DNA of 64,000 bases, from positions 1 through 64,000 of IMG/VR virus record IMGVR_UViG_3300028920_000001; one strand, given 5' to 3'. Position 1 is the stretch's first letter, and each line of letters starts with the position of its first letter. Shown here one piece after another: positions 2,106 to 17,623 of the stretch. The DNA is from a virus. The position numbers and the translations under genes were made by a program. The notes beneath the pieces are model-generated. The model did no database searches. It saw only the letters and a list, made by a program, of their open reading frames with translations, and was not told the DNA's origin.

Positions 2106-2788
2106 ATAGATAACTTATATTTTTTTCTTCCTCTTTGCCAATTAATTAAATCTATAGGCTTATCAAAATCTTCAGTCCAATCATCAATAGTATGAAAGTA
2201 TTTAGATGTTTCACATCCTGTATAATCAAAGCTTTGATTATGAATAGAAGATAGAACAGATTTGATATAGTCAATTTTGCGCTTTGGTTGACCATTGATA
2301 ATAGCTTGCCTTACTTTTTCGCAGTGATCATTAAGTAGAGAATGATCGGATGGATTGAATTTCAATGCATAGATTTCGGGACAGTCTTTTCTAGTTAATT
2401 TACTTGTATGAAAGCGTCCATAAAAAGTAATGATTTCTTTTTCCTTACAAATTATGGTTTGTATGGCTTCTTCAGTGAAGTAAGTGTCACCAAATAAAAT
2501 AACTGTTGGTGAAATAATAGTCCATAATTTTCTACTGCACATTATTTTGTCAATATAAACTGGATACGAATACTTAATTCCTTGACTTAATCTGACATAT
2601 GATGGACAGATATTTTTGATTTTTGGATCTTCAGTTATGACCCAGATATCATTTGTTCCGAATTGTTTACATAGTCTTATAGTTCGTTGTAAAATGAATT
2701 CTTCATTAACAGTAACTAGTTGCTTTGGTACTCCTGTATGATTACCCCATCGTTTTCCATTTCCACCGCATGGAATGATGACTCTCAT
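2102..2788 (-). CDS. Nucleotidyltransferase-like protein, paralog B
   Basis: N-terminus MRVIIPCGGNGKRWGNHTGVPKQL. It has the same architecture and C-terminal DDWTEDFDKP motif as 1374..2105. Confidence 0.6.
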   Translation of the reverse strand: MRVIIPCGGNGKRWGNHTGVPKQLVTVNEEFILQRTIRLCKQFGTNDIWVITEDPKIKNICPSYVRLSQGIKYSYPVYIDKIMCSRKLWTIISPTVILFGDTYFTEEAIQTIICKEKEIITFYGRFHTSKLTRKDCPEIYALKFNPSDHSLLNDHCEKVRQAIINGQPKRKIDYIKSVLSSIHNQSFDYTGCETSKYFHTIDDWTEDFDKPIDLINWQRGRKKYKLSI

Positions 2789-2804
2789 ACGGTACGGTAC
2801 TTAT

Positions 2805-3455
2805 ATGTTTGATTGGAAAAATACCGAAGCCATCATCCCGGCAGTGGTGTCTATCGCTGAACGAGCTGATTCTCTGCGCCAATTATTAGTGGACTTATCT
2901 ATTCAATGTCCAGGGATTAGTGCTACAGTAATACCACAATGGAAACAGAGCCCTAGATCAAATCCTAGATTGGCATTTGAATCGATTACCAAAGGCCTTC
3001 AAGGAATGTCTAGTCCTTGGATATTTTATATGGAGGAAGATATTCAATTATCTTCCAAGTTTGGAGAATTGGTACCGGAAGTATTAAATAAAATACCTGA
3101 TGAATGTGGTGCGGTTTCTTTCTTTTCCCCAAATAAAACAGAACAAAAACTGGTACGATTAAATGGATCATCATTAAATGAAGCTGGAGAACCTTTTACT
3201 TACGCGCAATGTGTGGCTATGAAATTAAAAGTAGCTTTAGCTTGGAAAAACATGATTTTACCTTGGTGGGATGCTGCTCCCTCTGGTAAAAAACGAGCTC
3301 CGGATATGGCACTAGGAGATTGCTGTAAGGATTTAGGATTGAAAATTCTTATTTATTTGCCTAATTTAGTTCAACACCGATGTATAGAATCCGGATTTGG
3401 CCATTCTAATCGTCCTAAGTCGTATACATTTATTGATGATTTGAATAATGTTTGA
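2805..3455 (+). CDS. Putative glycosyltransferase-like protein, paralog A
   Basis: Track ORF 2775..3455. The internal ATG at 2805 gives MFDWKNTEAIIPAVVSIAERA, identical to the start of paralog 3448..4083. It carries the acidic motif FYMEEDIQLS and a C-terminal NLVQHR. Family assignment is uncertain. Confidence 0.5.
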   Translation: MFDWKNTEAIIPAVVSIAERADSLRQLLVDLSIQCPGISATVIPQWKQSPRSNPRLAFESITKGLQGMSSPWIFYMEEDIQLSSKFGELVPEVLNKIPDECGAVSFFSPNKTEQKLVRLNGSSLNEAGEPFTYAQCVAMKLKVALAWKNMILPWWDAAPSGKKRAPDMALGDCCKDLGLKILIYLPNLVQHRCIESGFGHSNRPKSYTFIDDLNNV

Positions 3456-4083
3456 TTGGAAAAATACTGAAGCCATTATTCCAGCGGTAGTATCTATTGC
3501 TGAACGAGCCAAATCTTTACAACAATTATTGATAGATTTATCTATTCAATGTCCAGGAATTAGTGCTACGGTAATTCCACAATGGAAAAGCAATCCTAAG
3601 GCTGATCTTAGATTAGCATTTGAATCGATTGCTAAGGGTCTTCACAAAATATCTAGCCCTTGGGTATTTTATATAGAAGAAGATATTCAATTATCTTCGA
3701 GATTTGGGGAATTAGTCCCTGATATTCTAAATAATATGGGTGATGATTGGGGTGCAGTATCTTTATTTTCTTTTAATTCAGATGATGTTCGGATGCTTAG
3801 ATCCGGAATGCATTACTACAGAATAGATTTGATTTATTCACAATGTCTAGTAATGAAATTGGAAGTGGCGAAAGCTTGGGAAAAATCAATTTTACCTTGG
3901 TGGGATAATGCTCCGAAAACTAAAAAAGAGGCTATTGATGCCTCTTTTAGAGAGTGCTGTAAGAATCTTGGATTGAAGGTTTTTGTTTATCTTCCTAATT
4001 TAGTTCAACATCGGCTTCTAGCCTCTGGATTTGGTCTTTCTCATCGTCCGAAATCATATGTATTTATCGATGATCTTGACTAG
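3448..4083 (+). CDS. Putative glycosyltransferase-like protein, paralog B
   Basis: Tandem duplicate of 2805..3455, with high identity at both nt and aa level over the first ~60 codons. Its start overlaps the stop of copy A (ATGTTTGA). Confidence 0.5.
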   Translation: MFDWKNTEAIIPAVVSIAERAKSLQQLLIDLSIQCPGISATVIPQWKSNPKADLRLAFESIAKGLHKISSPWVFYIEEDIQLSSRFGELVPDILNNMGDDWGAVSLFSFNSDDVRMLRSGMHYYRIDLIYSQCLVMKLEVAKAWEKSILPWWDNAPKTKKEAIDASFRECCKNLGLKVFVYLPNLVQHRLLASGFGLSHRPKSYVFIDDLD

Positions 4084-4123
4084 AACTTTCATTTAGTAAG
4101 GTTATATCAAATTGGAGACAAAC

Positions 4124-4489
4124 ATGGCCGAACTACGTAAAATCACCATTCCCGATCTCATCAAAGTTAATGCCTTGGTTGAAGATGAAAAGGGCAATCA
4201 GAAGCGAGAAGTTCAAGATTATACTTTTTACGATTATGTTGGATATTTGATTAATACTCAAGAAGGTTTCAATAAAACTGGACCTGGGATCAGGGCTGGT
4301 GTTCGAATAATGAAAAAATTAAGTGAAGCTAAAGAGTCTGAAGATATGGTAAAATCTATTGTTATAGATGAGCCAGATTGGACTTTATTACAGGAAACTT
4401 CTGAAGAACCTCCACAGGGGTATCCATTTGGACCGACCAGACTTTTATTGTCGTTTTTGGATGCAATTAACGACGCAGAAAAGGTCTGA
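4124..4489 (+). CDS. Hypothetical protein (structural module)
   Basis: Track ORF 4112..4489 begins at a TTG. The ATG at 4124 is preceded by GGAGA at 4114-4118. Its stop overlaps the next start (TGATG). Confidence 0.6.
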   Translation: MAELRKITIPDLIKVNALVEDEKGNQKREVQDYTFYDYVGYLINTQEGFNKTGPGIRAGVRIMKKLSEAKESEDMVKSIVIDEPDWTLLQETSEEPPQGYPFGPTRLLLSFLDAINDAEKV

Positions 4490-4953
4490 TGAGTAACGGT
4501 GGTGGTTCCTGGGGTACTTCCTGGGGATATATCTGGGGTAGTGGAGGTGCTGTCGGTGCTTCCACTCCTTGTGGTTTTGCATTCCCAATTTATCAAATTC
4601 CATTTGGTACTGTATTAGGTCGTGCGGATCTTGATAGATTTACTGGAACCCCGGATACTGGATTTTTAACTCTCGGCACGCAAAGTCCTGGTTTAGTATA
4701 TTTTTCACCGGCTTTACTTGAAGCTCGCCCGAATAATCAAATAGATATTGATAGTTTTGAAATAACTACTCGGGCTTTTGAGATCTATGCCCAACCAAAT
4801 CAAGAAAATAATAGACTGTTTAGATTTGGGCCCAATAGTTTATCTCGCACAAATAATTATTTATATAGATCACAGCCCTCTGAATATACTGCTGTTGGAA
4901 TATTAACTCAGACTTTACCTCCTGGACCAACTGTCGTATACGGAATATTTTAA
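4489..4953 (+). CDS. Hypothetical structural protein with Gly/Trp-rich N-terminus
   Basis: 154-aa ORF translationally coupled to the upstream gene. N-terminus MSNGGGSWGTSWGYIWGSGGAVGAS. Confidence 0.55.
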   Translation: MSNGGGSWGTSWGYIWGSGGAVGASTPCGFAFPIYQIPFGTVLGRADLDRFTGTPDTGFLTLGTQSPGLVYFSPALLEARPNNQIDIDSFEITTRAFEIYAQPNQENNRLFRFGPNSLSRTNNYLYRSQPSEYTAVGILTQTLPPGPTVVYGIF

Positions 4954-4978
4954 CTTTTGATTCAGAGGAATTAGAGAA

Positions 4979-5635
4979 ATGTTTAGAAAACCTGCGAAAA
5001 TAGAACGCTTCAATCCAATGAGATCAGCAGTCGTGGGTTTTGCGATGACTGCTTCAGACACGTTCCCTACTTATAAAGGTGAGATTTTCTGGGAATTAAG
5101 ACATAAAGACGGTCAGATTGAGAAGGGACACTATCAGAATTTAGTTACTTTAGATGCTGGAGTTCTTCTGGCTCGTTTGATGAAGAGTCCTACTACTCCT
5201 AATGTGTCTGAGCCTGCTCATGGAGTTTTTGCATTGGCGGTCGGGACCGGGGATGTAGGTTGGGACCCTCTAAATCCTCCCCCAGCTACTAATACTCAGC
5301 GGTCTCTTTATAATGAGCTAGCTCGAAAACAAATTGCTAGTACAGATTTCATTACATCGACTGGAACCATTAGTGGTGTTCCAACCAATAAAGTAGATTT
5401 CACGACCATATTTTCTGAGTCCGAAGCGGTCGGAGCTTTGACAGAAATGGGATTGCTCTGTGGGGATGTAAATTCAAATATGGCAGTACGGAATCCTATT
5501 TTGCCTGCCAATGGAACTTACGATACTACCGTAGATGTAACTGGTAAGGATATTTTAGTTAATTATATAACGTTCCCAGTAATCAATAAGCCGGCCACGA
5601 GCACCTTACAATGGACATGGCGCTTAACTTTTTAA
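4979..5635 (+). CDS. Tail-collar-fibre-like / baseplate-associated protein
   Basis: The pattern FALAVGTGDVGWDP...TNTQRSLYNELARKQI...EAVGALTEMGLLCGD resembles the N-terminal domain of phage tail-collar fibre proteins (MAVGDG...QTxL..E..R..I...IREIGLFD). This is motif recollection only. Confidence 0.4.
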   Translation: MFRKPAKIERFNPMRSAVVGFAMTASDTFPTYKGEIFWELRHKDGQIEKGHYQNLVTLDAGVLLARLMKSPTTPNVSEPAHGVFALAVGTGDVGWDPLNPPPATNTQRSLYNELARKQIASTDFITSTGTISGVPTNKVDFTTIFSESEAVGALTEMGLLCGDVNSNMAVRNPILPANGTYDTTVDVTGKDILVNYITFPVINKPATSTLQWTWRLTF

Positions 5636-5653
5636 TTAAATGTAATTTTATGA

Positions 5654-7537
5654 ATGCATATTGATGAATTAAAGCAATATTTAAATTTAGAAAAGACTAA
5701 ACAAGAATTTGGTGAACCTAAAAATAATAAATCAATAGTATACGTGATTTGTGAGGATTGCCAATTAGACAGACAAATTACAATCCAGTCACTTAAGAAT
5801 AAACTTAGGTTAGATCGGGGGACTCGTTGTAATGCTTGTGGTACAAGATTTTCTTGGACAAATCCTGAAAGAAAAATTAGACAACAGCGAGTTTGGAAAG
5901 ATCCGGAGTATAGAAAGAAACAATCTAAAATTAGGAAGAAACAATGGGAAAATCCTGAGTATCAGCGCAAACAAGCTACTAAGACTGAGGCACGCAAAAA
6001 TGACTCTTCATATCAAGAAAGGATGTCTCGTCAGTCTAAAAAGCAATGGGAAAGGCCTGAATATCGAGAAAATCAGATAGAAATCCAAAAACAATTATGG
6101 AAAACTGAAGAGTATCGAAAAAATCAAAAAGCATTTAAGACTGAGGAATTTAAAAGAGGTCAATCTGTAAAACAGCAACAAGTATGGCAAGATCCTGAAT
6201 ATCGAGAAAATCAATCTGTAAAACAGCAACAAGTATGGAAAAGACCTGGATATAGGAAGCATCAATCAGCAATTCAAAGTCGAATTTGGAATAATCTAGG
6301 ATATCAGGAGCGGCAGTCAAAATTACAAAAACAGGTATGGCAGAATTTTGAATATCGGAAGCATTTTGAAGAAATTTGGGGAAGTGAAGAATATCGAGAA
6401 AAATTATCTAAATCTTTAACAGAAAAATGGAAAAATCCGGAATTTAGAAAAAGAGCTTCTGAAGCTGCAAAAGAAAGGTGGAAAGATCCGGAATTAAGAG
6501 AAAAACTTTCTATTGCAATTAAAAAGATGTGGGAAAGGTCTGAATATCGGGAAAAACAATCACGGGCTCAAAAAAGAAAATGGGAAGATCCTGAGTATCT
6601 AGAAAAAATGGTACAAGCCAGGTCTTCCCAACTCGGAAGAAGATCTTCTATTGAAAAAATTACTGAACAAATTCTTGGTTTAATTGGAGTTAATTATGAA
6701 ATAGAAGTTCCGATCGGTAAATATAGATTCGATTTTTACGTACCCGAACATGATTTATTCATAGAATGTCAGGGAGAATATTGGCATTCTATAGAAGGAA
6801 GACCTGCTCGAGATGCGGCCAAGTTCACTTATTTTGAAAAGGCTCAACCTGATTCTCAGATTTTATATCTTCATGAACGTGAGTTCTTAAATCCTGATTT
6901 AATAAGACGAAAATTGTTACTCTCCATGTTTGGGGACGGATTCAACTTTATTCAAAAAGAATTCAAATTTTCCGATCTGGCTATCCGTAAATTTGAACGG
7001 AAATCTAAAGAACCTCGTTTGTTCTTAAATTCATTTCATTATGCCCAATTCGGCAGGTCAGCTAAAGTAATTTACGGGGCTTATTTGGAGGATGAATTAG
7101 TTGCAGTCTGTAAATTTACTACTCCGGTTAGGAAAGAAGTTGCAACCTCGATGGACTATGCCTATTCAGAAGTCCTGGAATTAGATAGATTCTGTATTCA
7201 TCCGGAATATCAAAAGAAGAATCTTGCTTCTTGGTTTATCTCTCGATGTTCCAAATTAATATTTCAAGAATATCAAATTAAATGTCTGGTGTCATTTGCT
7301 GATTCAACTTATGGACATTTCGGGACGATTTATAAGGCTGCTAATTGGGAAGAGATAGGAAAGATTCGACCTGATTATCATTATGTTAATGATGATGGGT
7401 TCATCCTACATAAGAAAACCTTATATAATCATGCAGTGAAAATGGGTAAGAAAGAGAAAGAATACGCCGAAGAATTTGGATATCGAAAGGTGTTTGGTAA
7501 AGAAAAGATTAAATTTGTGAAAAAGATTCAATTGTAA
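5654..7537 (+). CDS. Large homing-endonuclease-like ORF: Zn ribbon + 14 W-x-[DN]-P-E-Y-R repeats + Vsr/DUF559-like nuclease core + GNAT-like C-terminal domain
   Basis: The N-terminus has a CEDC...CNAC ribbon followed by 14 Trp-initiated units of modal length 17 aa. Then comes YRFDFYVPEHDLFIECQGEYWHS and the C-terminal block LVSFADSTYGHFGTIYKAANW. It is a paralog of 55444..57231 over the last ~300 aa. Confidence 0.6.
   Translation: MHIDELKQYLNLEKTKQEFGEPKNNKSIVYVICEDCQLDRQITIQSLKNKLRLDRGTRCNACGTRFSWTNPERKIRQQRVWKDPEYRKKQSKIRKKQWENPEYQRKQATKTEARKNDSSYQERMSRQSKKQWERPEYRENQIEIQKQLWKTEEYRKNQKAFKTEEFKRGQSVKQQQVWQDPEYRENQSVKQQQVWKRPGYRKHQSAIQSRIWNNLGYQERQSKLQKQVWQNFEYRKHFEEIWGSEEYREKLSKSLTEKWKNPEFRKRASEAAKERWKDPELREKLSIAIKKMWERSEYREKQSRAQKRKWEDPEYLEKMVQARSSQLGRRSSIEKITEQILGLIGVNYEIEVPIGKYRFDFYVPEHDLFIECQGEYWHSIEGRPARDAAKFTYFEKAQPDSQILYLHEREFLNPDLIRRKLLLSMFGDGFNFIQKEFKFSDLAIRKFERKSKEPRLFLNSFHYAQFGRSAKVIYGAYLEDELVAVCKFTTPVRKEVATSMDYAYSEVLELDRFCIHPEYQKKNLASWFISRCSKLIFQEYQIKCLVSFADSTYGHFGTIYKAANWEEIGKIRPDYHYVNDDGFILHKKTLYNHAVKMGKKEKEYAEEFGYRKVFGKEKIKFVKKIQL
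6161..6238 (+). repeat. In-frame tandem duplication inside the W-x-DPEYR array (period 51 nt)
   Basis: caatctgtaaaacagcaacaagtatgg occurs identically at 6161-6187 and 6212-6238. Confidence 0.9.
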
Positions 7538-7764
7538 TGAATGTATTTTTCTTCATGATAACGGCTGAAGAATACCTTAAGCATTATTGTAAAGAAAATA
7601 ATATTAATTGGAATAAGCTTACTCGAGCTGAACAATTTATGTTAACTAGAAAAATTCCTTGTACTATTCGTTGTTTTAGAGTGGGTGGACCTGTCGATCT
7701 AGATGAAGATGGGACTTGTCCTGAATGTGGTGCAATTTGGTTAGCTGATGTTATGGAATCATGA
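7537..7764 (+). CDS. Small Cys-containing protein ending in VMES
   Basis: 75 aa, with a CPEC motif and C-terminus LADVMES. ATGA-type overlaps on both sides. Confidence 0.65.
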   Translation: MNVFFFMITAEEYLKHYCKENNINWNKLTRAEQFMLTRKIPCTIRCFRVGGPVDLDEDGTCPECGAIWLADVMES

Positions 7765-7976
7765 TTGTTGACATCCACAGGTGTCATCGGATTCCATGTA
7801 AAAATAAAGTAACTTATTATGTTAAAGTCACCTGGCCTTATCGATTTATGGATAATCAACGTATCATTGGAGTATGTAGCCAGCATAGATACACTGGAAT
7901 ATTTGGTGCATCTAAACATGATATTGAAGAAATTGGTAAGGAAGAAGCTTTTGTTTATGAAATCATGGAATCTTAA
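7761..7976 (+). CDS. Small Cys/His-rich protein ending in IMES
   Basis: 71 aa, C-terminus EAFVYEIMES. The stop is followed directly by the next ATG. Confidence 0.65.
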   Translation: MIVDIHRCHRIPCKNKVTYYVKVTWPYRFMDNQRIIGVCSQHRYTGIFGASKHDIEEIGKEEAFVYEIMES

Positions 7977-8351
7977 ATGAGACGATTTCTTTTACGACGT
8001 GATAAGGATGTAACCGGAATTTCCGGTACCGGAGTGATAGCCGAAGGTGTTATATTTGATGAAAAAGGAAAACCTGGGGAAGGAAAAGTTGTGCTTCATT
8101 GGCGCACATCAACATCTTCAATAGTTATTTATGAAAGTTTGGATGGAATAAAGAAAGTTCATTGTCATAACGAAAATACTAAAATTGTTTGGATAGATTG
8201 TTGTAAAACTTGTATTCATCTACAATGGTATGACGATAAAGGTGGTCAATGTTGGGGAACTTCATGTCCTGTGTATTATGAAGACTCATGTCCTGTGTAT
8301 CAATCTTCAATTCATCCTGAAATAATTGTGAAAACAGTGATGGAATCATAA
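7977..8351 (+). CDS. Small protein with Cys-rich C-terminal half, ending in VMES
   Basis: 124 aa. The N-terminal DVTGISGTGVIAEGVIFDE...VVLHW...VHCH...IVWID resembles a domain common in phage small proteins (recollection). C-terminus KTVMES. Confidence 0.65.
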   Translation: MRRFLLRRDKDVTGISGTGVIAEGVIFDEKGKPGEGKVVLHWRTSTSSIVIYESLDGIKKVHCHNENTKIVWIDCCKTCIHLQWYDDKGGQCWGTSCPVYYEDSCPVYQSSIHPEIIVKTVMES

Positions 8352-8394
8352 TTTTAGGAAAGCTGTCTTTTTGTTTTTTGTCTGCAATTAACGT

Positions 8395-8454
8395 GGACGG
8401 ATAGGGTAAAAGCTCTCGCCCCCAAGAGCTTACCCAACACAGCCCTATCCGTCC
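8395..8454 (+). terminator. GC-rich nested stem-loop followed by a T-rich tract (candidate intrinsic terminator or structured RNA)
   Basis: ggacggataggg (8395-8406) pairs with ccctatccgtcc (8443-8454). An inner stem aagctct/agagctt lies within. The element is followed by ttgtattatttttatt and sits just after the last gene of a + strand run. Confidence 0.5.
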
Positions 8455-8478
8455 CTTGTATTATTTTTATTGATATCT

Positions 8479-8814
8479 ATGTCGCACTATTTTAATTCAT
8501 TTGAGGAAATGTGGGATGCCATAATTGATTTTATTTCCCATAATCCAGATGCTGTAATTTTATGTAATGATGATCCGTCTTCAAGAAAAATTGGATATTG
8601 TGCATACGCTTACAATAAAATTAATACATATTGGACGATGGATGTTAAACCATATAATGCTTATATCTGTAAACATTTTAAATCGGATCAAGATGTCAAT
8701 CCGACTGTATTTAATATTCGTTTGATATCAGCGGCAGCACTAAATCAAGGGATAAAACTTGAAAATTTTGATCCTGAGAATTGGCACCTGTTGTCTGATA
8801 TTCATTTAACTTGA
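8479..8814 (+). CDS. Hypothetical protein
   Basis: Track ORF 8470..8814 starts at a TTG. The first ATG is at 8479. Confidence 0.55.
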   Translation: MSHYFNSFEEMWDAIIDFISHNPDAVILCNDDPSSRKIGYCAYAYNKINTYWTMDVKPYNAYICKHFKSDQDVNPTVFNIRLISAAALNQGIKLENFDPENWHLLSDIHLT

Positions 8815-9246
8815 CATAATTTCATTAACTTGACATAATTTGCATTTAGGATGATGCCCTACAAATAAGTCGGCTACAATTTCTTTGCATTCTGGACATG
8901 GATATGAAGTGATTACAAAACCTCCACCACTGACTATGACTTCCAATTCATTCTTATTTTTAATTACCACTACTTTAGATACATCCATTTCATAGTTGAT
9001 TGATAAATCAAGAGTTCTAATTATACGATCATGGATTGTTGGAAATTCCCAGCTTTTGGGTACTATAATATCATTGTTAGGTATGGTGGAAGCTAAATTT
9101 TCTTGAAATTCAACTTGGATTTCCCCGTGTTCATACCAAATTTGCCCTTTTTGGTCTAATCTGTAACCAAATTCATCTAGCATCTTGTAAATTCTATTTA
9201 TTTCTTGATGTGATTGGGTCCAGAGATACTGCATTAGTTTATTCAT
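8806..9246 (-). CDS. Hypothetical protein with C-terminal CPEC...CKLC zinc-ribbon-like motif, ending in IMSS
   Basis: Track ORF 8806..9327. The internal Met at 9246 avoids a 68-nt head-to-head overlap with 9260..9583. Confidence 0.55.
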   Translation of the reverse strand: MNKLMQYLWTQSHQEINRIYKMLDEFGYRLDQKGQIWYEHGEIQVEFQENLASTIPNNDIIVPKSWEFPTIHDRIIRTLDLSINYEMDVSKVVVIKNKNELEVIVSGGGFVITSYPCPECKEIVADLFVGHHPKCKLCQVNEIMSS

Positions 9247-9259
9247 ATTACATTTTAAT

Positions 9260-9583
9260 GTGATTTGTATCAGATGTGGGACCCATCTTTGGATATCTGA
9301 AAATCCGGTCAAATGTCCGTATTGCAAAACCTTAAATTATCCTGCTCCAAAGCCTGAATTCAAATCTCAGACTAGACCTGAATATTACCAAGCTAAACGC
9401 GAAAAATATAGCCCACAGAATCAAATTAGACGATCTCTTCCTCAACCCCCAACGGTTGGGCTCGGAGACGCTGTGGAGATGGTTACCCGAGCTATAGGGA
9501 TTAAACCTTGCGGGGGATGCAAAAAACGCAAGGAGACGTTTAACAGGGCCGTCCCTAATATACGTCGTCCTTGGAGACGTTAG
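9260..9583 (+). CDS. Zinc-ribbon protein
   Basis: GTG start. N-terminal CIRCG...CPYC and C-terminal GLGDAVEMVTRAIGIKPCGGCKKRKETFN. Confidence 0.55.
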   Translation: MICIRCGTHLWISENPVKCPYCKTLNYPAPKPEFKSQTRPEYYQAKREKYSPQNQIRRSLPQPPTVGLGDAVEMVTRAIGIKPCGGCKKRKETFNRAVPNIRRPWRR

Positions 9584-9625
9584 TATGGTTTATTGCAGCC
9601 TCTTATAGGGTCGGTCATTTGAATA

Positions 9626-12187
9626 ATGGCATATAAAGATCTAGGTTCCGGAGTAAGTCAAAAACCTCAGCTCCTCAGCACCGGAGATCAATTTTCGGCT
9701 GAGCAAAAATCCTATGAATCAGTTGTAGTTCAAGAAGATGCTCCCATGATTGATTGGGAGATGAATCTACGGAGCGAAATCAAATCAGATTATGGATTAA
9801 GATTAGTTACCCAAAAGTCATACCCTTCCTGTTTTCTAACCAGTGATTTTCTCGAGAATACAGAACCATCAAATTCTTTTGAATTTTTGACTGCTAGTGT
9901 TGGTAACGAAAATAAATTTATTCTTAAAGCTTGTGACGCTATTGTGAACGGATGGCCTGTTCACATTGAATATTCTGACACTAACACTGATGGTGAAAAT
10001 GAAATTACTTTATCTGTTCCTCCGGGTGCTGGTGTTAGAACTGATTTAGTTATCCTTGAAGTATGGAGGGCCCTGGTTAAAGCAGCTCCTGATACGGCTA
10101 ATAAGAGCCCGACTAGCTTAATACTAAGAAATGGAAATGTTAAAGCTCCTGATACAGTCAATTTAACCGATGATTTAATTGATCCAACATATGCAGCAGA
10201 ATCTCAAGCTCGAGTGCAAATTCAATATCGACTTAGAGTTATTGATGGTGTTGATGCTTTTACTTATCCTGATATTTTGGATGATCCCGCTATCGTAGCT
10301 CATACTGTAAGTGATTTTTCGGGGCCTGGAGCTGACGGAAGCGCTACAGCATTTCAATTTGCAGTTGCCGATCATGATAAATCATTGTGGATAGCAGGTA
10401 CGGGCACTGTTGGTGATGCTAATGCATTGGGCACAGTGGATGGTTTTATGTATGCCATTCCGGTATGCGTAATTGCTCGTCGTAATGACGGCGCTTTTGA
10501 TCAAACACTGAATCTTAATGGTGGAAGCTTAATAGTATCGGCAAGTTCAACTCGTCCTGATGGACTATTTTCTGATCAAATTGTTGCCAGTGATGTCAAG
10601 GACTTGAGAAAAGGTTGTTCTAACAATCCTCGAGAAATTTTAGAACAAGCAACTGCTCAGCTATTCAATAATAGTTTGTCTACCGAGTTAGAAGTCGGAT
10701 TAAAAGGGACAGCTGGAACTTCTTTCTTAGAAGTTAGCAGTATTGGATTTGGTGAGAGAATCGGCAATACTGACACGGCTCGTCGTCGTTTCAGTGATCG
10801 TCCTTATTCTGAAGTTGTGGTTGGAAAGATTGTTGTAGGTGGTACACCTCAGAGTGCCTTTTACATTGATTTGAATAATTTTACTATTTCATGGGGGGCT
10901 GGAGCGACGGGAATTGATACTTTAACCCCGAATGCCACCTTAGGTCGAATTAATCAAGTTAGAGTAGTTGATACTGGAGTGCCAAGTGATGTTGATTTAA
11001 TAATTACTGGTGGAATTAGAGATATCACATATACCTCTCCTACATTAGCTGTAATTAACACTATTTCTTCCTATTCTAATGTTACTATTTACGTGGAATG
11101 TGTGATTGACTATCCGGCTGGTATCGGTGTCGATCGCAACATGTTGTCTGTCCATGATATCTGGGTTCCATCAGCTGCGACTTTAGGTGCTTGGGTTGAC
11201 AGTTCGCTTTTTGTAGTTACTCCGGATGTAACTCGATATAGCTTAATTCCAAATTCAGCTGTTCCTCCAGTCCCAATGTGGGAAGAAGATCCAGCTCATC
11301 GAGAAGTTAAGATCCAGCTTCAGTCAGTTGATCAGGTAGCTACATTTTATTCTTATAGTACTAATCAAGTATGGGTGCCTGATCGAATAAACTATGAGGA
11401 TGTAACTATTGATGATGGAATTAATCCTCCATATTCTACCGGGAATTACACTAAAGATACTGCTTATACTCAAATCTTTTTATCGATTGCAGTGCCATCT
11501 GGAACCCCGGTTCAAGTCACTTACAAAGCTTTACGGGCTTTACCTTATGTAAACAGCGCAAATCGAGTTCAGGTATTTTATCAAACTCGTGCTATTCAAT
11601 CTTTACTTCCACCGGCCGGATCTCAGACTCTTGAATTAGTTCCTCGAGCTATAGGGAATCTACATACAATTTCACATGGTTCGGGAAGTCCTGATTATCC
11701 AACCCCATTTATTCAGCCTGGAGCTCAGGTGCCTGTTGGATTATTACCTACTATTATTGAAGCTAAAATAGATGCACCGGCCGGGGATCTTAATTCTGGT
11801 TTGACTTTAAGTTTCTCTGGTATTCAAACTCATATTCCGTATTACCCAGAACCGCAATCGGTTACATTGCATCGGGAACCTGGAGATACGGTTATAGATG
11901 GTGATCAAAGAAATTTCTGGCCTCAATCCGATACTGCTGATGTGGTAGTTAAAGGTACTCCCTATATAGGGGAGAATAAACATAAGACTGTTTTACCTAC
12001 TTTAATGGAAGTGAAGTCTGATTTTCAAAGTGTGGGTAAATCTGGCACTTTCGTATTAGTGGTGTTTACTGGATACAATGAATTTGAGAAGGGAACTGAA
12101 ATTAATTTAACTAATTTAATAGGGGATTCGGCAGCAGCGGTTTATAGGGTTCGTGGGAATTTCATGAATGTGCGCAGGTCTGACTAA
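9626..12187 (+). CDS. Large virion structural protein (fibre/baseplate-associated), paralog of 12974..17623 over its N-terminal third
   Basis: 853 aa. Shared blocks are AIVNGWP, DDLIDP, RVQIQYRLRVI, GTVDGFMYAIPV and RPDGLFSDQ. Confidence 0.7.
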   Translation: MAYKDLGSGVSQKPQLLSTGDQFSAEQKSYESVVVQEDAPMIDWEMNLRSEIKSDYGLRLVTQKSYPSCFLTSDFLENTEPSNSFEFLTASVGNENKFILKACDAIVNGWPVHIEYSDTNTDGENEITLSVPPGAGVRTDLVILEVWRALVKAAPDTANKSPTSLILRNGNVKAPDTVNLTDDLIDPTYAAESQARVQIQYRLRVIDGVDAFTYPDILDDPAIVAHTVSDFSGPGADGSATAFQFAVADHDKSLWIAGTGTVGDANALGTVDGFMYAIPVCVIARRNDGAFDQTLNLNGGSLIVSASSTRPDGLFSDQIVASDVKDLRKGCSNNPREILEQATAQLFNNSLSTELEVGLKGTAGTSFLEVSSIGFGERIGNTDTARRRFSDRPYSEVVVGKIVVGGTPQSAFYIDLNNFTISWGAGATGIDTLTPNATLGRINQVRVVDTGVPSDVDLIITGGIRDITYTSPTLAVINTISSYSNVTIYVECVIDYPAGIGVDRNMLSVHDIWVPSAATLGAWVDSSLFVVTPDVTRYSLIPNSAVPPVPMWEEDPAHREVKIQLQSVDQVATFYSYSTNQVWVPDRINYEDVTIDDGINPPYSTGNYTKDTAYTQIFLSIAVPSGTPVQVTYKALRALPYVNSANRVQVFYQTRAIQSLLPPAGSQTLELVPRAIGNLHTISHGSGSPDYPTPFIQPGAQVPVGLLPTIIEAKIDAPAGDLNSGLTLSFSGIQTHIPYYPEPQSVTLHREPGDTVIDGDQRNFWPQSDTADVVVKGTPYIGENKHKTVLPTLMEVKSDFQSVGKSGTFVLVVFTGYNEFEKGTEINLTNLIGDSAAAVYRVRGNFMNVRRSD

Positions 12188-12973: not shown

Positions 12974-15900
12974 ATGGCTAATCCCCTCGGATCTGGCGTA
13001 ACTAGATATATTAATGGTAGGGACAAACAGTTAGGGTCTGTTATTATTCAAAGTAACAAACCTATTCTGGATTCCGAATTAAATCTTGCTCAGTTTGTTG
13101 ATTTAGAAGCTCGAGCTGAAGAAGTAAGGTCAAGAGTACCTTCGGGTTGGCTAATCAATGAAGCTAATCCGATGAATGACTTTGTTACTCATCCAAATTA
13201 TTCGAACTTATTTTTCTTTGGAAATCAGCATGTTAATGAGCTTCGAGATCTTCAGTGGGCAATTGTAAATGGGTGGCCCATACCTGTTACTGCTACTCGG
13301 ACTGGAGCTCCACCTCTTAGTCCGAATAATTTTGATACTTGGAATCGAATTGAATTAAATCCTCCCGGTGGAGCAACCGGTGGAAATAAAGTTGAATTCA
13401 TATTTCTTGAAGCCTGGTTACAACGTATAGATGTTGATCCAGCGCCACCAACTATTGCTCCTGGAAAACCTCAACGAGGATTTCTCTATCGATTTGGAAA
13501 TGTTGAGAGTGGATATTCATATTTACCAGACGACTTAATTGATCCGGACATGAATTTTGAGACTTCTAAGAGAATTCAGATTCAATACCGAATTCGAGTT
13601 ATTCAGAATATCAATCTTTCTCAATATCCTGAAGGGTTTGATCCTACTTTAGTTTTTGCTCAGGGTCCTCTCAGTACTCCGAGTGCTCTTTATTTCACAA
13701 ATATGCGTAAAGAACTCGGTGATCCTGGTCTATGGCGTGCCGGCACTGGTGATTCTGATTTAGTCGGAACAGTAGATGGTTATATTTATGCTATCCCGAT
13801 TTCAGCAGTATTCCGGCGCAATAGTGCAGGGTTCTCTGATACTGGAAATTTAGCAGGTGCATTTAATCGAAATAGTACTGCTACAACCAGAGAAGATGCT
13901 ATTGTTTATTCGAGTGGCCTCACTCTTCCCACCGACATTGCTGATACTGACACTCAATTCACTCTAACTACCATCTCCGGCACTGTGCTAGAGAATATGA
14001 GTTCGTTTGGGGAAGCATACTTTAGAGTCGATGATGAAATAATTCGAATTAGTAATATTAATCAAACGAGCCCGACTTCATTTGTAATTACTTTTGATCG
14101 AGGTCAATTACTAACTACTATCAGGGCCCATAGTGCTGGCAAGGCGCTCAATCTCTATACTGTTCGACCCGATGGGCTGTTTGCTGATCAGGTTGCGAGA
14201 ACTGACATTCTTGATCTTCGTCATTCAGTTGCTGATAAATTCGATTATGATTCCATCCTTAAAACTAATTTAGTTGAGCTTCTTAAGGGTAATTTACGTA
14301 CTGCTTGGAAGAGATTTGGTTCTACTAATACTGCGGGTCCGGTAGTTCTTTATGGTGATCGGATCACTGATGATTCGATCTTTGTTGGTGGTTTATCCAG
14401 GCTTGATGGCCCTAATGGTAACCGGCGAACTTGGTCTGATGCTATCACGACTGAACGGTTAGTAGTTTCTTGTCGTAATCCATCTGATAGTAACGCAATT
14501 GGTGATGATTTAGAAGTTTCAGTCGCTCCTTATAATATTATTGTGGAGTGGTCTAATGCTGATGCCACTAGATTGCCTGGTTCGCGTATTGATAGTGGTG
14601 TGTCTAAATGGTTTAATGGTGATAAGATTAAGATTAATTTAGCTGAATTTCAAGATGGTTTACCAGTAACGGATGCTGATCAAGTCAGGTTCATTACTCC
14701 GGATGAAGATGAAGATGCTGTTTTAATTCATTTTGAGGGAATGATTTCAGATCCTAATGGAGCAAATCCTTCAGTCGCCCCTTATTCAACTTGTCCATCT
14801 GTCACACTTCCGGTATTTTCTTCTGCTCCGACAGGGAATCGAATTCTGAAACATGGGCAAGGTATTACTGTTACTGTTGATGGATCTGGTAATCTCGAAA
14901 TTGAACTTGATAGTGGTACTTCTGGCACAGTTTTCCAAGAATTCCAGGACTGTCTTGATAATTTAGATACGATCACTTCTGATACTGCTGCAGCGTCATT
15001 AATGCACATTCAAGTTGGTGTTGTTTATGGTTCTGGACGTGGCTTATCGCATAAGCCAGATTATGTCCATAATGTGCATTATCGAGGAGATGCTTCTAAT
15101 TCGTCCAAGGTCATGTTACGGCCTGGGCTTAATAATGGGAATCGAATGATTCCTAGTTATGTTAGTTTTTCTCCTTATGTTCAAACTGGCAAGCATCGTG
15201 ACTTAGCTGTTACTTCTGAGGTAATGGTTGATACTGGATCAAAAACTATTAAAGTTCAGCCTTATCGGAATGTTTTATTACCGCCTTTGATTGTTCGAAA
15301 TGGAAATGTTTTGAATTGGGGTAATCTGGCTCAGCCTCAAGGGGCAATGCCGATGTATGATGAGCCTCGAACTACTCTTGTTCATACTTATGTTGATCCA
15401 CTTGATTTATTCTATATCGGGAACACTAATACTCGATACGTAGAAATTCCGTGGGAATATCTTCCTCGGCCTGGACTGCATCACGTTCCAATTATTCCAG
15501 TAACGGGGACAGTGTTCCCATCCGGAATCAATTTCTTGCTGATGTCTAAGACTGGATCAGTTGGAAGTACATCGGACTGGAATAGGAATTTAGTTGCATA
15601 TCCGTCGGCTTCTCCCGGTTACTATGTTGTAACCCCTGTAATTGGGGAAACTTACGGCGATTCATCTTCTTCTACTTCATGTTTCGGACAGAAATATGAA
15701 AATGAGGTATTGCCTACTTTAAGTGGACCATTTAGGGGCATCCAATTCCCGCCGTTTTATGGTCCTGCTCGAATCACTGGTGTTTATCTTCGTGATACGA
15801 CTGGAGCTCTTCCATACCCAACTACTCCAACATCTTCTCCATTCAACAATAATCGACAATTTGTTGGTGGTGTAGGAACTGATATTAACTTACTTAAGGA

Positions 15901-17623
15901 CGATTTTGATGGACCTACATTCTTGCTGGACGTAGACGCCAACGGTGATATCACATTTGTTTTGAATGCTGATGTTATTGATCTGACTAAAGCTCCGTCT
16001 GGAACTACCTGGGATAATTCAGAATTTATTGTTGAGTGCACTTTGTTTGCATTCGATCGTGGATTTCTTCAGACTAATGGTCGCTTGCTAATTACGCAAG
16101 CTAAAGGTCAAAGTCTGTCAGTTGATCTGAATACTTTCATTGATAATTCGGATGAACGGACTGGAATTATTGCACCAGCACCATTAACTTTAGGTGCTAC
16201 TAACAACGAACTTACCATTTTTTATAGTCGTCAACCTTATCAAGGTGACGTATTTGGTACTCGAGATGCTTATTCTGACGATGTTCAACGTCTTGGTCCA
16301 TTAACAGTATCTGAAGCTACTAGCATTTTTTCAAATCACCAGGGGCCAATTAATACGCTCACATTGTCAAATAAGACAGGGTTCGAAGTCCTGGCTGCAA
16401 CCAATTTTGTGACTTCATTAGGTACAGGGCGGCTTTCTGGATCTAATCCGATTCCGTTACTAACTGAAGAACAAAAGCCGGACGAAGTTATTGATTACGC
16501 GGGAACTTTAGTTGATTTTGATCGACGGTTTTCTCTTAATCGAGTTGGATATGAAGACTGGGAAACACCTCTGTTTCCAGTGGTAGAGGCTTCTGTTGCA
16601 GCCCGTCCAGATATTGAATTAGGTGCAATTTCGGAAGTATATGATCGAGATGTAAATACCGAATTTGCTGGATGTATTAGTCAGCTTCCTCTCGGAATTT
16701 ATTTCCGTGACAAAGATTTCATTGGAAAGACTTTATATCAGATTCGGAGTGCTAATAATATTGGTGCGATTCCACTAGGTACTCTTTACTTCCCGCCCTT
16801 CGAATCTCCCGTATCAGCACTTTCTCCGGGTCAATCCACTTGGGAAGGTGTGGAATTTGTTTGTGGGCAATCTAGTAGTGCATCTGGAGTCGGTGGAGAA
16901 GCACTGATTAAGGTAGATGGCACTGCTAATTACGGTAGTGTTACTCAATTTAAGGCTGCTCGAGGTGGTGCTGGTTGGTCCGTGACTAATCCATGGCCAG
17001 GTGCTGCCATTTCGGCGAAATTACCTAAAGCTCGGCCTAATTCCAATGCCGGCGCAGTTCTTTCTGGAATTGCATACTTGGTGAGGTCACAACCTGAAAC
17101 TGTGAATTCAATTGAAGTTCATCCTGGAAATGAACTTCAGTTATTGATAGTTACCCAAGCAGCTCCTACTTATTTCCGGGATTCTGATATCCTTCATTCT
17201 GCTTCTGGTACGAATGAAGGTTATACTGCGGTAGACAGGTATCGAATTTGGGGGCGTCCATTAGTTAAGCGTCGAGGTGAGATTGATGTTTCGTCATCAG
17301 TAATGCCATCGCCTCCGCCTATCTTTGTCAATAATATTTATGATGATCCAGTTTTCTATGGATCTAGTGATGTGAGCTTGAATTCAGTTGCGCACGGTCA
17401 ATTGGTGGTTACATCTGATGGTCAAACTGGATTCAGTCTACCTTCTCAGCCAATTAATCAAGACGCTCCAATGATTTGGGTGCGTGGTGTGAAGTTAGAT
17501 AAGGATACAGACTATACAATTAGTGGAGCAACGAACCAAACGCTTACTTACATCCCTAGTTTCCCGGATAACACGGAACTAGAGGTAGACGATGTGCTTG
17601 AATACTACTATCTAAGGATCTGA
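12974..17623 (+). CDS. Very large virion structural protein (1549 aa)
   Basis: Long uninterrupted ORF. The N-terminal ~420 aa are paralogous to 9626..12187 (AIVNGWP, DDLIDP, RIQIQYRIRVI, GTVDGYIYAIPI, RPDGLFADQ). Confidence 0.75.
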   Translation: MANPLGSGVTRYINGRDKQLGSVIIQSNKPILDSELNLAQFVDLEARAEEVRSRVPSGWLINEANPMNDFVTHPNYSNLFFFGNQHVNELRDLQWAIVNGWPIPVTATRTGAPPLSPNNFDTWNRIELNPPGGATGGNKVEFIFLEAWLQRIDVDPAPPTIAPGKPQRGFLYRFGNVESGYSYLPDDLIDPDMNFETSKRIQIQYRIRVIQNINLSQYPEGFDPTLVFAQGPLSTPSALYFTNMRKELGDPGLWRAGTGDSDLVGTVDGYIYAIPISAVFRRNSAGFSDTGNLAGAFNRNSTATTREDAIVYSSGLTLPTDIADTDTQFTLTTISGTVLENMSSFGEAYFRVDDEIIRISNINQTSPTSFVITFDRGQLLTTIRAHSAGKALNLYTVRPDGLFADQVARTDILDLRHSVADKFDYDSILKTNLVELLKGNLRTAWKRFGSTNTAGPVVLYGDRITDDSIFVGGLSRLDGPNGNRRTWSDAITTERLVVSCRNPSDSNAIGDDLEVSVAPYNIIVEWSNADATRLPGSRIDSGVSKWFNGDKIKINLAEFQDGLPVTDADQVRFITPDEDEDAVLIHFEGMISDPNGANPSVAPYSTCPSVTLPVFSSAPTGNRILKHGQGITVTVDGSGNLEIELDSGTSGTVFQEFQDCLDNLDTITSDTAAASLMHIQVGVVYGSGRGLSHKPDYVHNVHYRGDASNSSKVMLRPGLNNGNRMIPSYVSFSPYVQTGKHRDLAVTSEVMVDTGSKTIKVQPYRNVLLPPLIVRNGNVLNWGNLAQPQGAMPMYDEPRTTLVHTYVDPLDLFYIGNTNTRYVEIPWEYLPRPGLHHVPIIPVTGTVFPSGINFLLMSKTGSVGSTSDWNRNLVAYPSASPGYYVVTPVIGETYGDSSSSTSCFGQKYENEVLPTLSGPFRGIQFPPFYGPARITGVYLRDTTGALPYPTTPTSSPFNNNRQFVGGVGTDINLLKDDFDGPTFLLDVDANGDITFVLNADVIDLTKAPSGTTWDNSEFIVECTLFAFDRGFLQTNGRLLITQAKGQSLSVDLNTFIDNSDERTGIIAPAPLTLGATNNELTIFYSRQPYQGDVFGTRDAYSDDVQRLGPLTVSEATSIFSNHQGPINTLTLSNKTGFEVLAATNFVTSLGTGRLSGSNPIPLLTEEQKPDEVIDYAGTLVDFDRRFSLNRVGYEDWETPLFPVVEASVAARPDIELGAISEVYDRDVNTEFAGCISQLPLGIYFRDKDFIGKTLYQIRSANNIGAIPLGTLYFPPFESPVSALSPGQSTWEGVEFVCGQSSSASGVGGEALIKVDGTANYGSVTQFKAARGGAGWSVTNPWPGAAISAKLPKARPNSNAGAVLSGIAYLVRSQPETVNSIEVHPGNELQLLIVTQAAPTYFRDSDILHSASGTNEGYTAVDRYRIWGRPLVKRRGEIDVSSSVMPSPPPIFVNNIYDDPVFYGSSDVSLNSVAHGQLVVTSDGQTGFSLPSQPINQDAPMIWVRGVKLDKDTDYTISGATNQTLTYIPSFPDNTELEVDDVLEYYYLRI

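Follow-up and report, generated by a model that had tools for sequence, protein, structure and literature searches.

A candidate Hef-type homing endonuclease gene with a Mom-family domain and a helical repeat array at a variable site of a large phage genome

I-Bth0305I, a protein of phage origin that protects ~60 bp of DNA, is the prototype of the Vsr-like EDxHD homing endonucleases and has been characterised experimentally; the phage Hef proteins have been placed in the same group (Taylor et al., 2011, NAR 39:9705, PMC3239194). Here we describe a gene that joins a nuclease domain of this type to a domain of the Mom family of DNA-modifying enzymes. It lies at positions 5654-7537 (+ strand) of the first 64,000 nucleotides of the IMG/VR virus record IMGVR_UViG_3300028920_000001 (hereafter the window) and encodes a protein of 627 amino acids (aa), designated here as the fusion protein. 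We interpret the gene, with a probability of roughly 55%, as a free-standing mobile homing-type endonuclease gene of the Hef/I-Bth0305I lineage that carries a Mom-family DNA-modifying domain in a jumbo-class phage.

In the I-Bth0305I protein (PDB 3r3p), a DNA-binding region of NUMOD type at the N-terminus precedes a Vsr-like domain with the residues E, D, H and D, which is the order of the corresponding parts of the fusion protein. It differs in its location in a group I intron in recA, in having two NUMOD2/helix-turn-helix (HTH) motifs instead of 16 helical repeats, and in lacking a Mom or GNAT domain. Mu Mom (PDB 8bv8; Karambelkar et al., 2020; Silva et al., 2026, Nat Commun 17:4787) shares with the fusion protein a GNAT fold into which a pair of helices is inserted, together with six active-site residues. 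It acts on the adenine N6 of double-stranded DNA with Gly-tRNA(Gly) as the donor, and differs in being a stand-alone 231/241-aa dimer without a nuclease or an array.

Fusions of the two enzyme types have been described in jumbo phages on computational grounds as Mom-REase proteins, with five "momylating enzymes" in Pseudomonas phage PA5oct (Iyer et al., 2021, Viruses 13:63, section 3.4.7, PMC7824862). As that section presents them, they consist, like the fusion protein, of a Mom GNAT domain and a DNase of the restriction endonuclease fold and occur in several copies per genome, and their predicted logic is that the modification shields the phage DNA from the linked nuclease. The account in that section is brief and, unlike the present one, includes no EDxHD/Hef assignment, W-x-DPEYR array, mobility or homing.

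The nuclease and Mom-like core is also shared by Hef-type proteins of Campylobacter phages (F370_158, CP21, and NCTC12673 Hef59), Thermus phage (TMA_137), and Yersinia phage phiR1-37 (g151), and by a "putative homing endonuclease" of Pseudomonas phage PA5oct. Hef, TMA_137, and phiR1-37 g151 match the family core profile with E = 1e-22 to 1e-24, the shared core is also seen in Foldseek matches, and PHROG families 559 and 3339 span the core over its full length. Like the gene studied here, Hef-type genes are free-standing, multi-copy and located beside conserved genes. Their N-termini differ, consisting of repeated zinc ribbons or DUF723/DUF4379-like modules and not of 17-aa helical repeats, and their GNAT domains are too diverged for the Pfam Mom model. 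A profile of the core only retrieved 878 cluster representatives at E ≤ 1e-30, which are routinely annotated simply as "homing endonuclease"; the best 150 matches all span the whole core and have N-terminal extensions of ~0-450 residues. In the searchable literature, we found no experiment on a nuclease and Mom fusion, no paper tying Hef-type homing endonucleases to Mom, and no description of the W-x-DPEYR helical array. The fusion architecture is thus already computationally described and widespread, while the array has no solved counterpart and the evidence for mobility is added here.

Domains of the fusion protein

The open reading frame (ORF) is intact and complete. A preliminary description, made from the letters of the window, had read it as a three-part ORF with tandem repeats, a nuclease core and a GNAT-like domain. 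This observation was confirmed, the repeat spacing being far beyond chance in comparison with shuffled sequences, and all three domain calls were upheld by profile and structure tests. The features of the ORF are as follows (all + strand).

5654-7537: fusion ORF, 627 aa plus stop, encoding a zinc ribbon, a helical repeat array, an EDxHD nuclease and a Mom-like GNAT domain.
5654-5854: N-terminal zinc ribbon domain, aa 1-67, C33/C36/C59/C62 (conservation of the four cysteines, AlphaFold2 model).
5855-6640: repeat array, aa 68-329, modal unit of 17 aa, one helix per unit (tryptophan spacing, AlphaFold2 models).
6160-6267: most similar adjacent units, 51-nt period, 2.1 copies (Tandem Repeats Finder, 86% matches).
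6641-6943: Vsr-like EDxHD nuclease domain, aa 330-430 (family profile against PDB 3r3p; residue mapping according to PMC3239194).
6944-7534: GNAT domain and linker, aa 431-627 (domain bounds).
7019-7471: Mom-family GNAT domain, Pfam match at aa 456-606 (Pfam Mom, phrog_1384, Foldseek match to 8bv8).

The AlphaFold2 model of the whole protein, calculated from a 50-sequence alignment, has a mean predicted local distance difference test score (pLDDT) of 90.1. From the N- to the C-terminus it shows a small zinc ribbon made of two strands and a helix, a row of 16 helices, a nuclease domain of alpha/beta type and a domain of GNAT type. A protein 100% identical to the fusion protein was found in the search for relatives (P0001), and the same architecture is present in more than 85 clusters. 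Conservation counts given below refer to 50 homologs of the fusion protein with 28-54% identity.

The best PDB match of the profile built from the 50-member family is the catalytic domain of I-Bth0305I (3r3p, E = 2.7e-10), with an alignment that spans residues 9-99 of the 105-residue chain. The motif YRFDFYVPEHDLFIECQGEYWHS at aa 357-379 is the one from which the preliminary description had recognised a Vsr/DUF559-like nuclease core, and the profile result bears out that assignment; some homologs also match Pfam Vsr, DUF559 or MTES_1575 weakly. The putative catalytic residues of the composite motif E...D...x...H...D are all present and correspond to those of I-Bth0305I as follows.

I-Bth0305I E170 corresponds to E334 (E in 36 and Q in 12 of 50 members).
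I-Bth0305I D196 corresponds to D360 (50 of 50).
I-Bth0305I N208 corresponds to Q373 (Q or N).
I-Bth0305I H213 corresponds to H378 (50 of 50).
I-Bth0305I D222 corresponds to D387 (49 of 50).

In addition, E371 (50/50) and K390 are invariant. By its profile similarity to I-Bth0305I the domain belongs with the Vsr-like domains of the EDxHD homing endonucleases, and it is likewise preceded by a predicted N-terminal modular DNA-binding region, of a module type that differs from the NUMOD2/HTH of I-Bth0305I.

The C-terminal domain matches the Pfam model (PF25680) of Mom, a family of DNA adenine N6 carbamoylmethyl/glycyl transferases, with E = 3.6e-21 and 76.2 bits against a gathering score of 27.1, while generic GNAT models of Pfam match it weakly. 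It also matches phrog_1384 ("Mom-like DNA modification protein") with E = 2.8e-26. Mu Mom (8bv8) is the top match by sequence profile (E = 1.3e-9), and the top PDB hits of Foldseek are 8bv8_B and 8bv8_A (E = 1.9e-10, template modelling score 0.65, 190 of 202 residues aligned), with ordinary GNATs ranking after them at E ≈ 1e-4. These results, in which ~170 aa match Pfam Mom, agree with the earlier call of a GNAT-like and Mom-related C-terminal domain. Mutagenesis of Mu Mom has shown the importance of H48, Y49, R101, S114, D139, and Y149 in the 231-aa numbering (PMC7261163, PMC13219725). In the 241-aa numbering they are H58, Y59, R111, S124, D149, and Y159, and they align with H462, Y463, R512, S526, D550, and Y560 of the fusion protein, of which the serine is conserved in 48 and each of the others in 50 of the 50 members. 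The suggestion that the protein may modify DNA as well as cleave it fits this pattern, in which both sets of catalytic residues are conserved across the family.

Between the last strands of the domain is a two-helix insertion (helices 587-596 and 601-607) at the position of the HTH-like insertion of Mu Mom, shorter than the latter by ~11 residues. In Mu Mom, the HTH-like insertion and R151 are essential and W48 is at the dimer interface (PMC13219725). R151 aligns with T552, and Thr is found at this position in 49 of 50 members; W48 aligns with K450 in a variable column, and W181 aligns with I584 (V or I in the family). The mechanism of Mu Mom was recently revised to a transfer of glycine from Gly-tRNA(Gly) to N6-adenine that is followed by a rearrangement on the base, and the substrates of GNATs are not predictable from the fold alone (PMC13219725). 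Because the essential R151 is replaced by Thr, the acyl donor or the adduct may differ from the Gly-tRNA(Gly) chemistry of Mu Mom, and with W48 also absent the oligomeric state may differ as well. The substitution of Thr for Arg151 may thus mark another donor or adduct, which is a concrete biochemical question.

The region of the repeats, aa 68-329, contains exactly 14 W-initiated units, 10 of which are 17 aa long. The count of 14 units and the modal length in the preliminary description were correct in this respect, as were the unit examples quoted there. The count has to be supplemented by two degenerate units without the tryptophan, which are concealed in register in "units" of 34 and 29 aa and bring the total to ~16, in agreement with the 16 helices, one per unit, that AlphaFold2 placed in aa 60-326. 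Nine W-W spacings are exactly 17 residues, a number reached by none of 20,000 composition-preserving shuffles, and across 86 members of the family the commonest spacing is by far 17 (327 cases). The family-wide consensus of the unit is W-x-[DN]-P-E-[YF]-R-x-[KR]-x-S-x-x-x-K-x-[LV]. R7, S11, and K15, which are conserved, follow one another at i, i+4, and i+8, and the positions beside them vary; from this spacing we infer that they lie on one helical face that would be suited to backbone contacts. The array is basic (69 K+R against 40 D+E, net charge +29). The structure prediction that the preliminary description had proposed as a check gave an ordered array: it retained 16 helices with a pLDDT of 87.5 when modelled alone, and its pLDDT is 85-93 in the models. 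A Foldseek search of the array model against the PDB found no counterpart, the single match being at E ≈ 10.

Two neighbouring units are indeed identical over 27 nt (6161-6187 = 6212-6238, within the tandem repeat at 6160-6267), from which the array had been taken to be growing by recent duplication. Comparison of the repeat number in relatives speaks against growth, and the claim was rejected: a relative with 90% DNA identity (L011) has the same number of units in the same register with no indel, and the architecture is conserved among orthologs, in which the 13-aa short unit and the five C-terminal units are recognisably orthologous at 30-50% protein identity. What is left is a local hot spot in the middle of the array. 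The most similar adjacent pair in many orthologs is located 170-199 residues upstream of the nuclease motif, with a lineage-specific sequence each time and an identity of up to 17/17 (in P0003). This pattern indicates recurrent local duplication of units or gene conversion/homogenisation at the hot spot.

The same repeat is elsewhere joined to GIY-YIG, to TnsA-like plus NUMOD3, and to stand-alone DUF559 nucleases. Such co-occurrence with several nuclease classes is a modular pattern typical of the DNA-binding modules of homing endonucleases, and it makes the recognition of nucleic acid by the repeats, as suggested in the preliminary description, plausible. Like NUMOD3-type motifs, the repeats are short, basic, helix-forming tandem motifs found on several nuclease classes. 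Membership of NUMOD3 (PF07460) was rejected, as the model had no hit at E ≤ 1 to the protein or to 15 homologous arrays. The only links to NUMOD3 are a homolog in which the W-repeat stands beside a canonical NUMOD3 motif (P0117) and a Foldseek match (E = 1e-5) to a UniProt protein named "Nuclease associated modular domain 3". The core model of GerD (PF17898) scored 24.5 bits with the array and 20 bits with the whole protein, both under the gathering score of 29.5. It hit 14 of the 15 homologous arrays (best E = 2.2e-10), and the GerD entry PDB 4o8w matched with E = 0.013. GerD shares with the array the x-DPE-[FY] helix-cap periodicity, including the alternation of 13 and 17 residues, and differs in not being a DNA-binding protein. 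Membership was not assigned to these sub-threshold hits, which were read as shared helix-cap periodicity and as a lead only; along with the GerD match, those to STI1, MBR1, nitrile hydratase and similar Pfam models were sub-threshold and were judged to be effects of composition or periodicity.

The N-terminal ribbon consists of two CxxC pairs, CEDC at aa 33-36 and CNAC at aa 59-62, as noted in the preliminary description. The four cysteines are at least 90% conserved in the family, and the model shows two strands followed by one helix. A Pfam CapR match to this domain is weak (19.9 bits, under the gathering score of 24.2).

In comparison with the homolog in L011 (~90% DNA identity), the ratio of nonsynonymous to synonymous divergence (dN/dS) is 0.12 overall. 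It is 0.16 for the zinc ribbon, 0.13-0.23 for the repeats, 0.06 for the nuclease and 0.05 for the Mom domain, so that purifying selection acts on every part; on these values, positive selection was considered for the repeats and rejected. Because every part is so constrained, the ORF is, as judged from sequence, a real, working protein, and both enzyme domains look active. The synonymous divergence (dS) between the two genes (window 5654-7273 and L011 2725-4384) is a mosaic, with 0.08 for aa 242-329, 0.22 for aa 330-430, 0.55-0.76 in the remaining gene and 0.50 in the upstream gene. This suggests a recent tract of recombination or gene conversion over the last five repeat units and the nuclease.

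Insertion site and distribution

Among the proteins encoded by the window are a DNA polymerase, helicases, a UvsX-like recombinase and tail-like proteins of very large size, and relatives are located on viral contigs of up to 512 kb; on account of this gene content and of these contigs, the genome is assigned to a large or jumbo-class phage. Megablast of window positions 4000-9500 found no close DNA relative among GenBank phages, and the phage is therefore taken to be uncultured. Scans of the window for tRNAs and Rfam families gave no match; the ORF is hence regarded as free-standing, with no sign of a surrounding intron. The features of the insertion site and the second gene discussed below are as follows.

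4979-5635, + strand: conserved gene on the upstream flank (218 aa, phrog_5417), with the insertion site at its 3' end.
5618-5653, + strand: left junction of the mobile cassette, with TGG-CGC at 5618-5623, the stop codon at 5633-5635 and TGTAAT at 5641-5646.
7537-9625, no strand assigned: variable low-GC island of small ORFs (GC content 0.356), without homologs in related loci.
9626-12187, + strand: downstream conserved gene, 853 aa.
55444-57231, + strand: second, diverged nuclease and Mom-like (Hef-type) gene, 595 aa (phrog_559, phrog_1384).

The spacer of 18 nt between the upstream stop codon and the fusion ORF carries the TGTAAT. In the relatives found via the fusion protein, the gene is always located after a ~217-aa gene (phrog_5417), and conserved genes of ~855, ~211, and ~1550 aa are present downstream. 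A second set of 37 loci was collected by anchoring on the upstream flanking gene. The fusion gene is present in six of them, always directly after the 218-aa gene, and the filled loci have a patchy distribution over the tree of that flanking gene. Of the 31 empty loci, 17 have the homolog of the 853-aa gene within about 5-130 bp of the 218-aa gene. Uninterrupted alleles of the junction at 5636/7537, which the preliminary description had assumed as a substrate for tests, thus exist in related phages.

The most informative pair of loci is L006 (filled) and L020 (empty), from IMG/VR 3300036766 and 3300032053, whose flanks are 96.3% and 98.8% identical. They differ by an ORF-precise indel of 1.9 kb, in place of which L020 has ~50 bp with a hairpin. 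On the left, the break falls within the final ~5 codons of the upstream gene, and on the right it falls within the final ~4 codons of the fusion ORF. The hairpin (CTGAAAC...GTTTCAG, L020 6409-6460) stands where L006 has the gene and is possibly a terminator of the upstream gene. All eight filled loci (six independent) carry TGGCGC, compared to three of the 26 empty loci (Fisher p = 9e-5). Filled loci also have a conserved TGTA[AT] motif behind the upstream stop codon. The GC content of the fusion gene is 0.343 compared to 0.425 and 0.402 for the flanks.

The second gene of this kind in the window, at 55444-57231, matches phrog_559 with E = 1e-81 and phrog_1384 (Mom-like) with E = 5e-12. Its similarity to the nuclease and Mom region of the fusion protein is 25% identity with E = 3e-10. 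In place of W-repeats, the N-terminal part contains zinc-ribbon modules with CxxC pairs, in several copies. A phmmer search against the ORFs of the window found the fusion protein alone, and this paralog surfaced only via the PHROG profiles. It has a GC content of 0.306 and is encoded on the strand opposite to its neighbours, which are RuvC-like and UvsX-like. In a related locus (L048), the genes that flank it are adjacent to each other and a homolog with 45% identity is located ~1.5 kb beyond uvsX.

A scattered occurrence at one and the same site, for which close relatives have empty alleles, is the distribution of an EDxHD homing endonuclease gene, and these comparisons of related loci are evidence that the fusion gene is a site-specific mobile element. 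The fixed site, the ORF-precise indel, the junction signature, the low GC content and the second paralog together constitute the classic marks of a free-standing homing endonuclease gene.

Proposed function and alternatives

A mode of action that would combine these features can be outlined. The zinc ribbon and the basic array of ~16 helices would place the protein lengthwise on a long run of DNA. The EDxHD domain would then cut the gene-less allele close to the 3' end of the 218-aa gene, after which recombinational repair from a gene-bearing genome would copy the ORF in. By analogy with Mu Mom and with restriction-modification systems, the tethered Mom-like GNAT domain would add an acyl- or aminoacyl-derived group to adenine N6 of the phage's own DNA, and the modified copies of the phage's own target would resist the nuclease, placing restriction-modification logic in one chain. 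The net effect would be that the gene spreads and persists, and it may also aid the phage against co-infecting relatives.

The observations on which this outline is built are the domain identities, the conservation of both catalytic centres, the purifying selection, the site-specific presence and absence and the ORF-precise indel; mobility and the exact site are shown. Several points weigh against it. The three steps of the mechanism are inferred throughout. The Mom domain lacks R151, W48, and W181, and its chemistry, donor or substrate may differ. Pfam NUMOD3 does not match the repeats, and DNA binding by the array is argued from context and charge. The gene has diverged like its flanks (46-51% identity for the fusion protein, 58-62% and 45-46% for the flanking genes), and this co-divergence also fits a long vertical residence with occasional loss. 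Finally, all 50 members look intact. For homing endonuclease genes that are purely selfish this would be unusual, and it suggests that the phage benefits; the gene is probably either kept for such a benefit or held intact by continuing transfer.

The last point is also used by an alternative that we regard as a serious though distinctly less probable one, in which the protein is a single-chain "momylation-restriction" weapon and homing plays no part. It would modify adenine genome-wide, and the nuclease would degrade unmodified host or superinfecting DNA, as stated for the jumbo-phage Mom-REase fusions in the section cited above (Iyer et al., 2021, PMC7824862). Besides the lack of degenerate copies, the strong constraint on both catalytic centres across the 50 members and the presence of several genes per genome (two in the window and five, according to that section, in PA5oct) are in agreement with such a role. 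However, the closest relative of the nuclease is a homing endonuclease proven to cut rarely, the length of the array and the membership of the Hef lineage suggest targets that are long and rare, and an insertion site shared across sub-lineages, an ORF-precise indel and a junction signature are typical of homing. The two models overlap in that the modification protects the phage's own DNA in both, and the main difference is the target frequency.

Two further explanations are weaker. The protein could be an anti-restriction modifier like Mu Mom, in which the Vsr-like domain and the repeats bind, scan or nick DNA and the presence and absence of the gene reflect accessory turnover. The membership of the Mom family with conserved active-site residues, the co-divergence of the gene with its flanks, and the gap between the 218-aa and 853-aa genes, a variable island with unrelated small ORFs, would suit this view. 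We consider it unlikely, since D360 and H378 in 50 and D387 in 49 of 50 members at 28-54% identity, together with the dN/dS of 0.06, would be needless for pure binding, and near-identical genomes differ by exactly the fusion ORF. It is more improbable still that the GNAT domain acylates tRNA, a protein or a small molecule (TacT/Rac type) and that the nuclease and repeats are an ordinary homing endonuclease. The Thr in place of R151 in 49 of 50 members, the lack of conservation of W48 and W181 and the fact that the substrate cannot be predicted from the fold (PMC13219725) leave room for it, but the domain scores far above the Pfam Mom threshold and weakly with generic GNAT models, Mu Mom is its closest structure, the two-helix insertion is at the site of the HTH-like insertion of Mu, and in hundreds of clusters it is lastingly joined to modules that bind and cut DNA.

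To return to the mobile homing-type endonuclease with a DNA-modifying domain, a speculative extension of this interpretation, to which we attach a low probability, concerns the array. The 17-residue units might be a modular DNA reader with a fixed number of base pairs per unit, in which R7, S11, and K15 would grip the backbone and base specificity would come from the variable positions beside them, so that a nuclease and an adenine-acylating enzyme would be sent together to a long and evolvable address. If true, the protein would be a homing endonuclease with built-in modification immunity, and the repeat, to which no solved structure corresponds, would provide a new scaffold on which DNA binding could be programmed. 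The basic 16-helix array recurs with at least four nuclease classes, and a DNA-bound structure would be informative.

The locus is a good test case, as filled and empty alleles with 96-99% identical flanks are available, the junction is located to within a few codons, and the catalytic residues are known. It allows the question of whether a homing endonuclease protects its own genome via Mom-type adenine hypermodification to be asked. If such protection is real, selfish homing endonuclease genes would be linked with phage DNA hypermodification, two fields that are now separate.

Neighbouring genes and other observations

The gap between the 218-aa and 853-aa genes (L006 7894-10469 and L020) also contains accessory genes, of 217, 612, and 99 aa, that are unrelated to those of the window; because of these, the gap is considered, from the gene content of the loci, a general hot spot for variable genes. 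The island ORFs at 7537-9625 have no homolog in any of ~40 related loci. The first of them overlaps the fusion stop codon by 1 nt (TAATG) and may be translationally coupled to the fusion gene. CxxC pairs are present in the island ORFs at 7537-7764, 7977-8351, 9260-9583, and 8806-9327 (- strand). A Com-like role for the zinc-ribbon ORF at 7537-7764 was considered and rejected, as it had no profile hit and no homolog in the related loci. In a relative (L001 3865-4479, and the 312-kb contig of P0010), the fusion gene is followed by two HU-like (Bac_DNA_binding) genes in place of the small ORFs of the window. A promoter and terminator scan of positions 4400-9700 gave counts not above those of shuffled sequence.

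Upstream of the site, the adjacent genes at 2775-3455 and 3448-4083 (+ strand) encode paralogs of 226 and 211 aa with near-identical N-termini (MFDWKNTEAIIPAVVSIAERA). Their similarity and position identify them as a tandem gene duplication, and neither has a PHROG match. Homologs of the downstream 853-aa protein (9626-12187) match the 1549-aa tail-like protein encoded at 12974-17623 (+ strand) with 33-35% identity over ~300 aa, and the 853-aa and 1549-aa proteins are probably related structural or fibre-like proteins.

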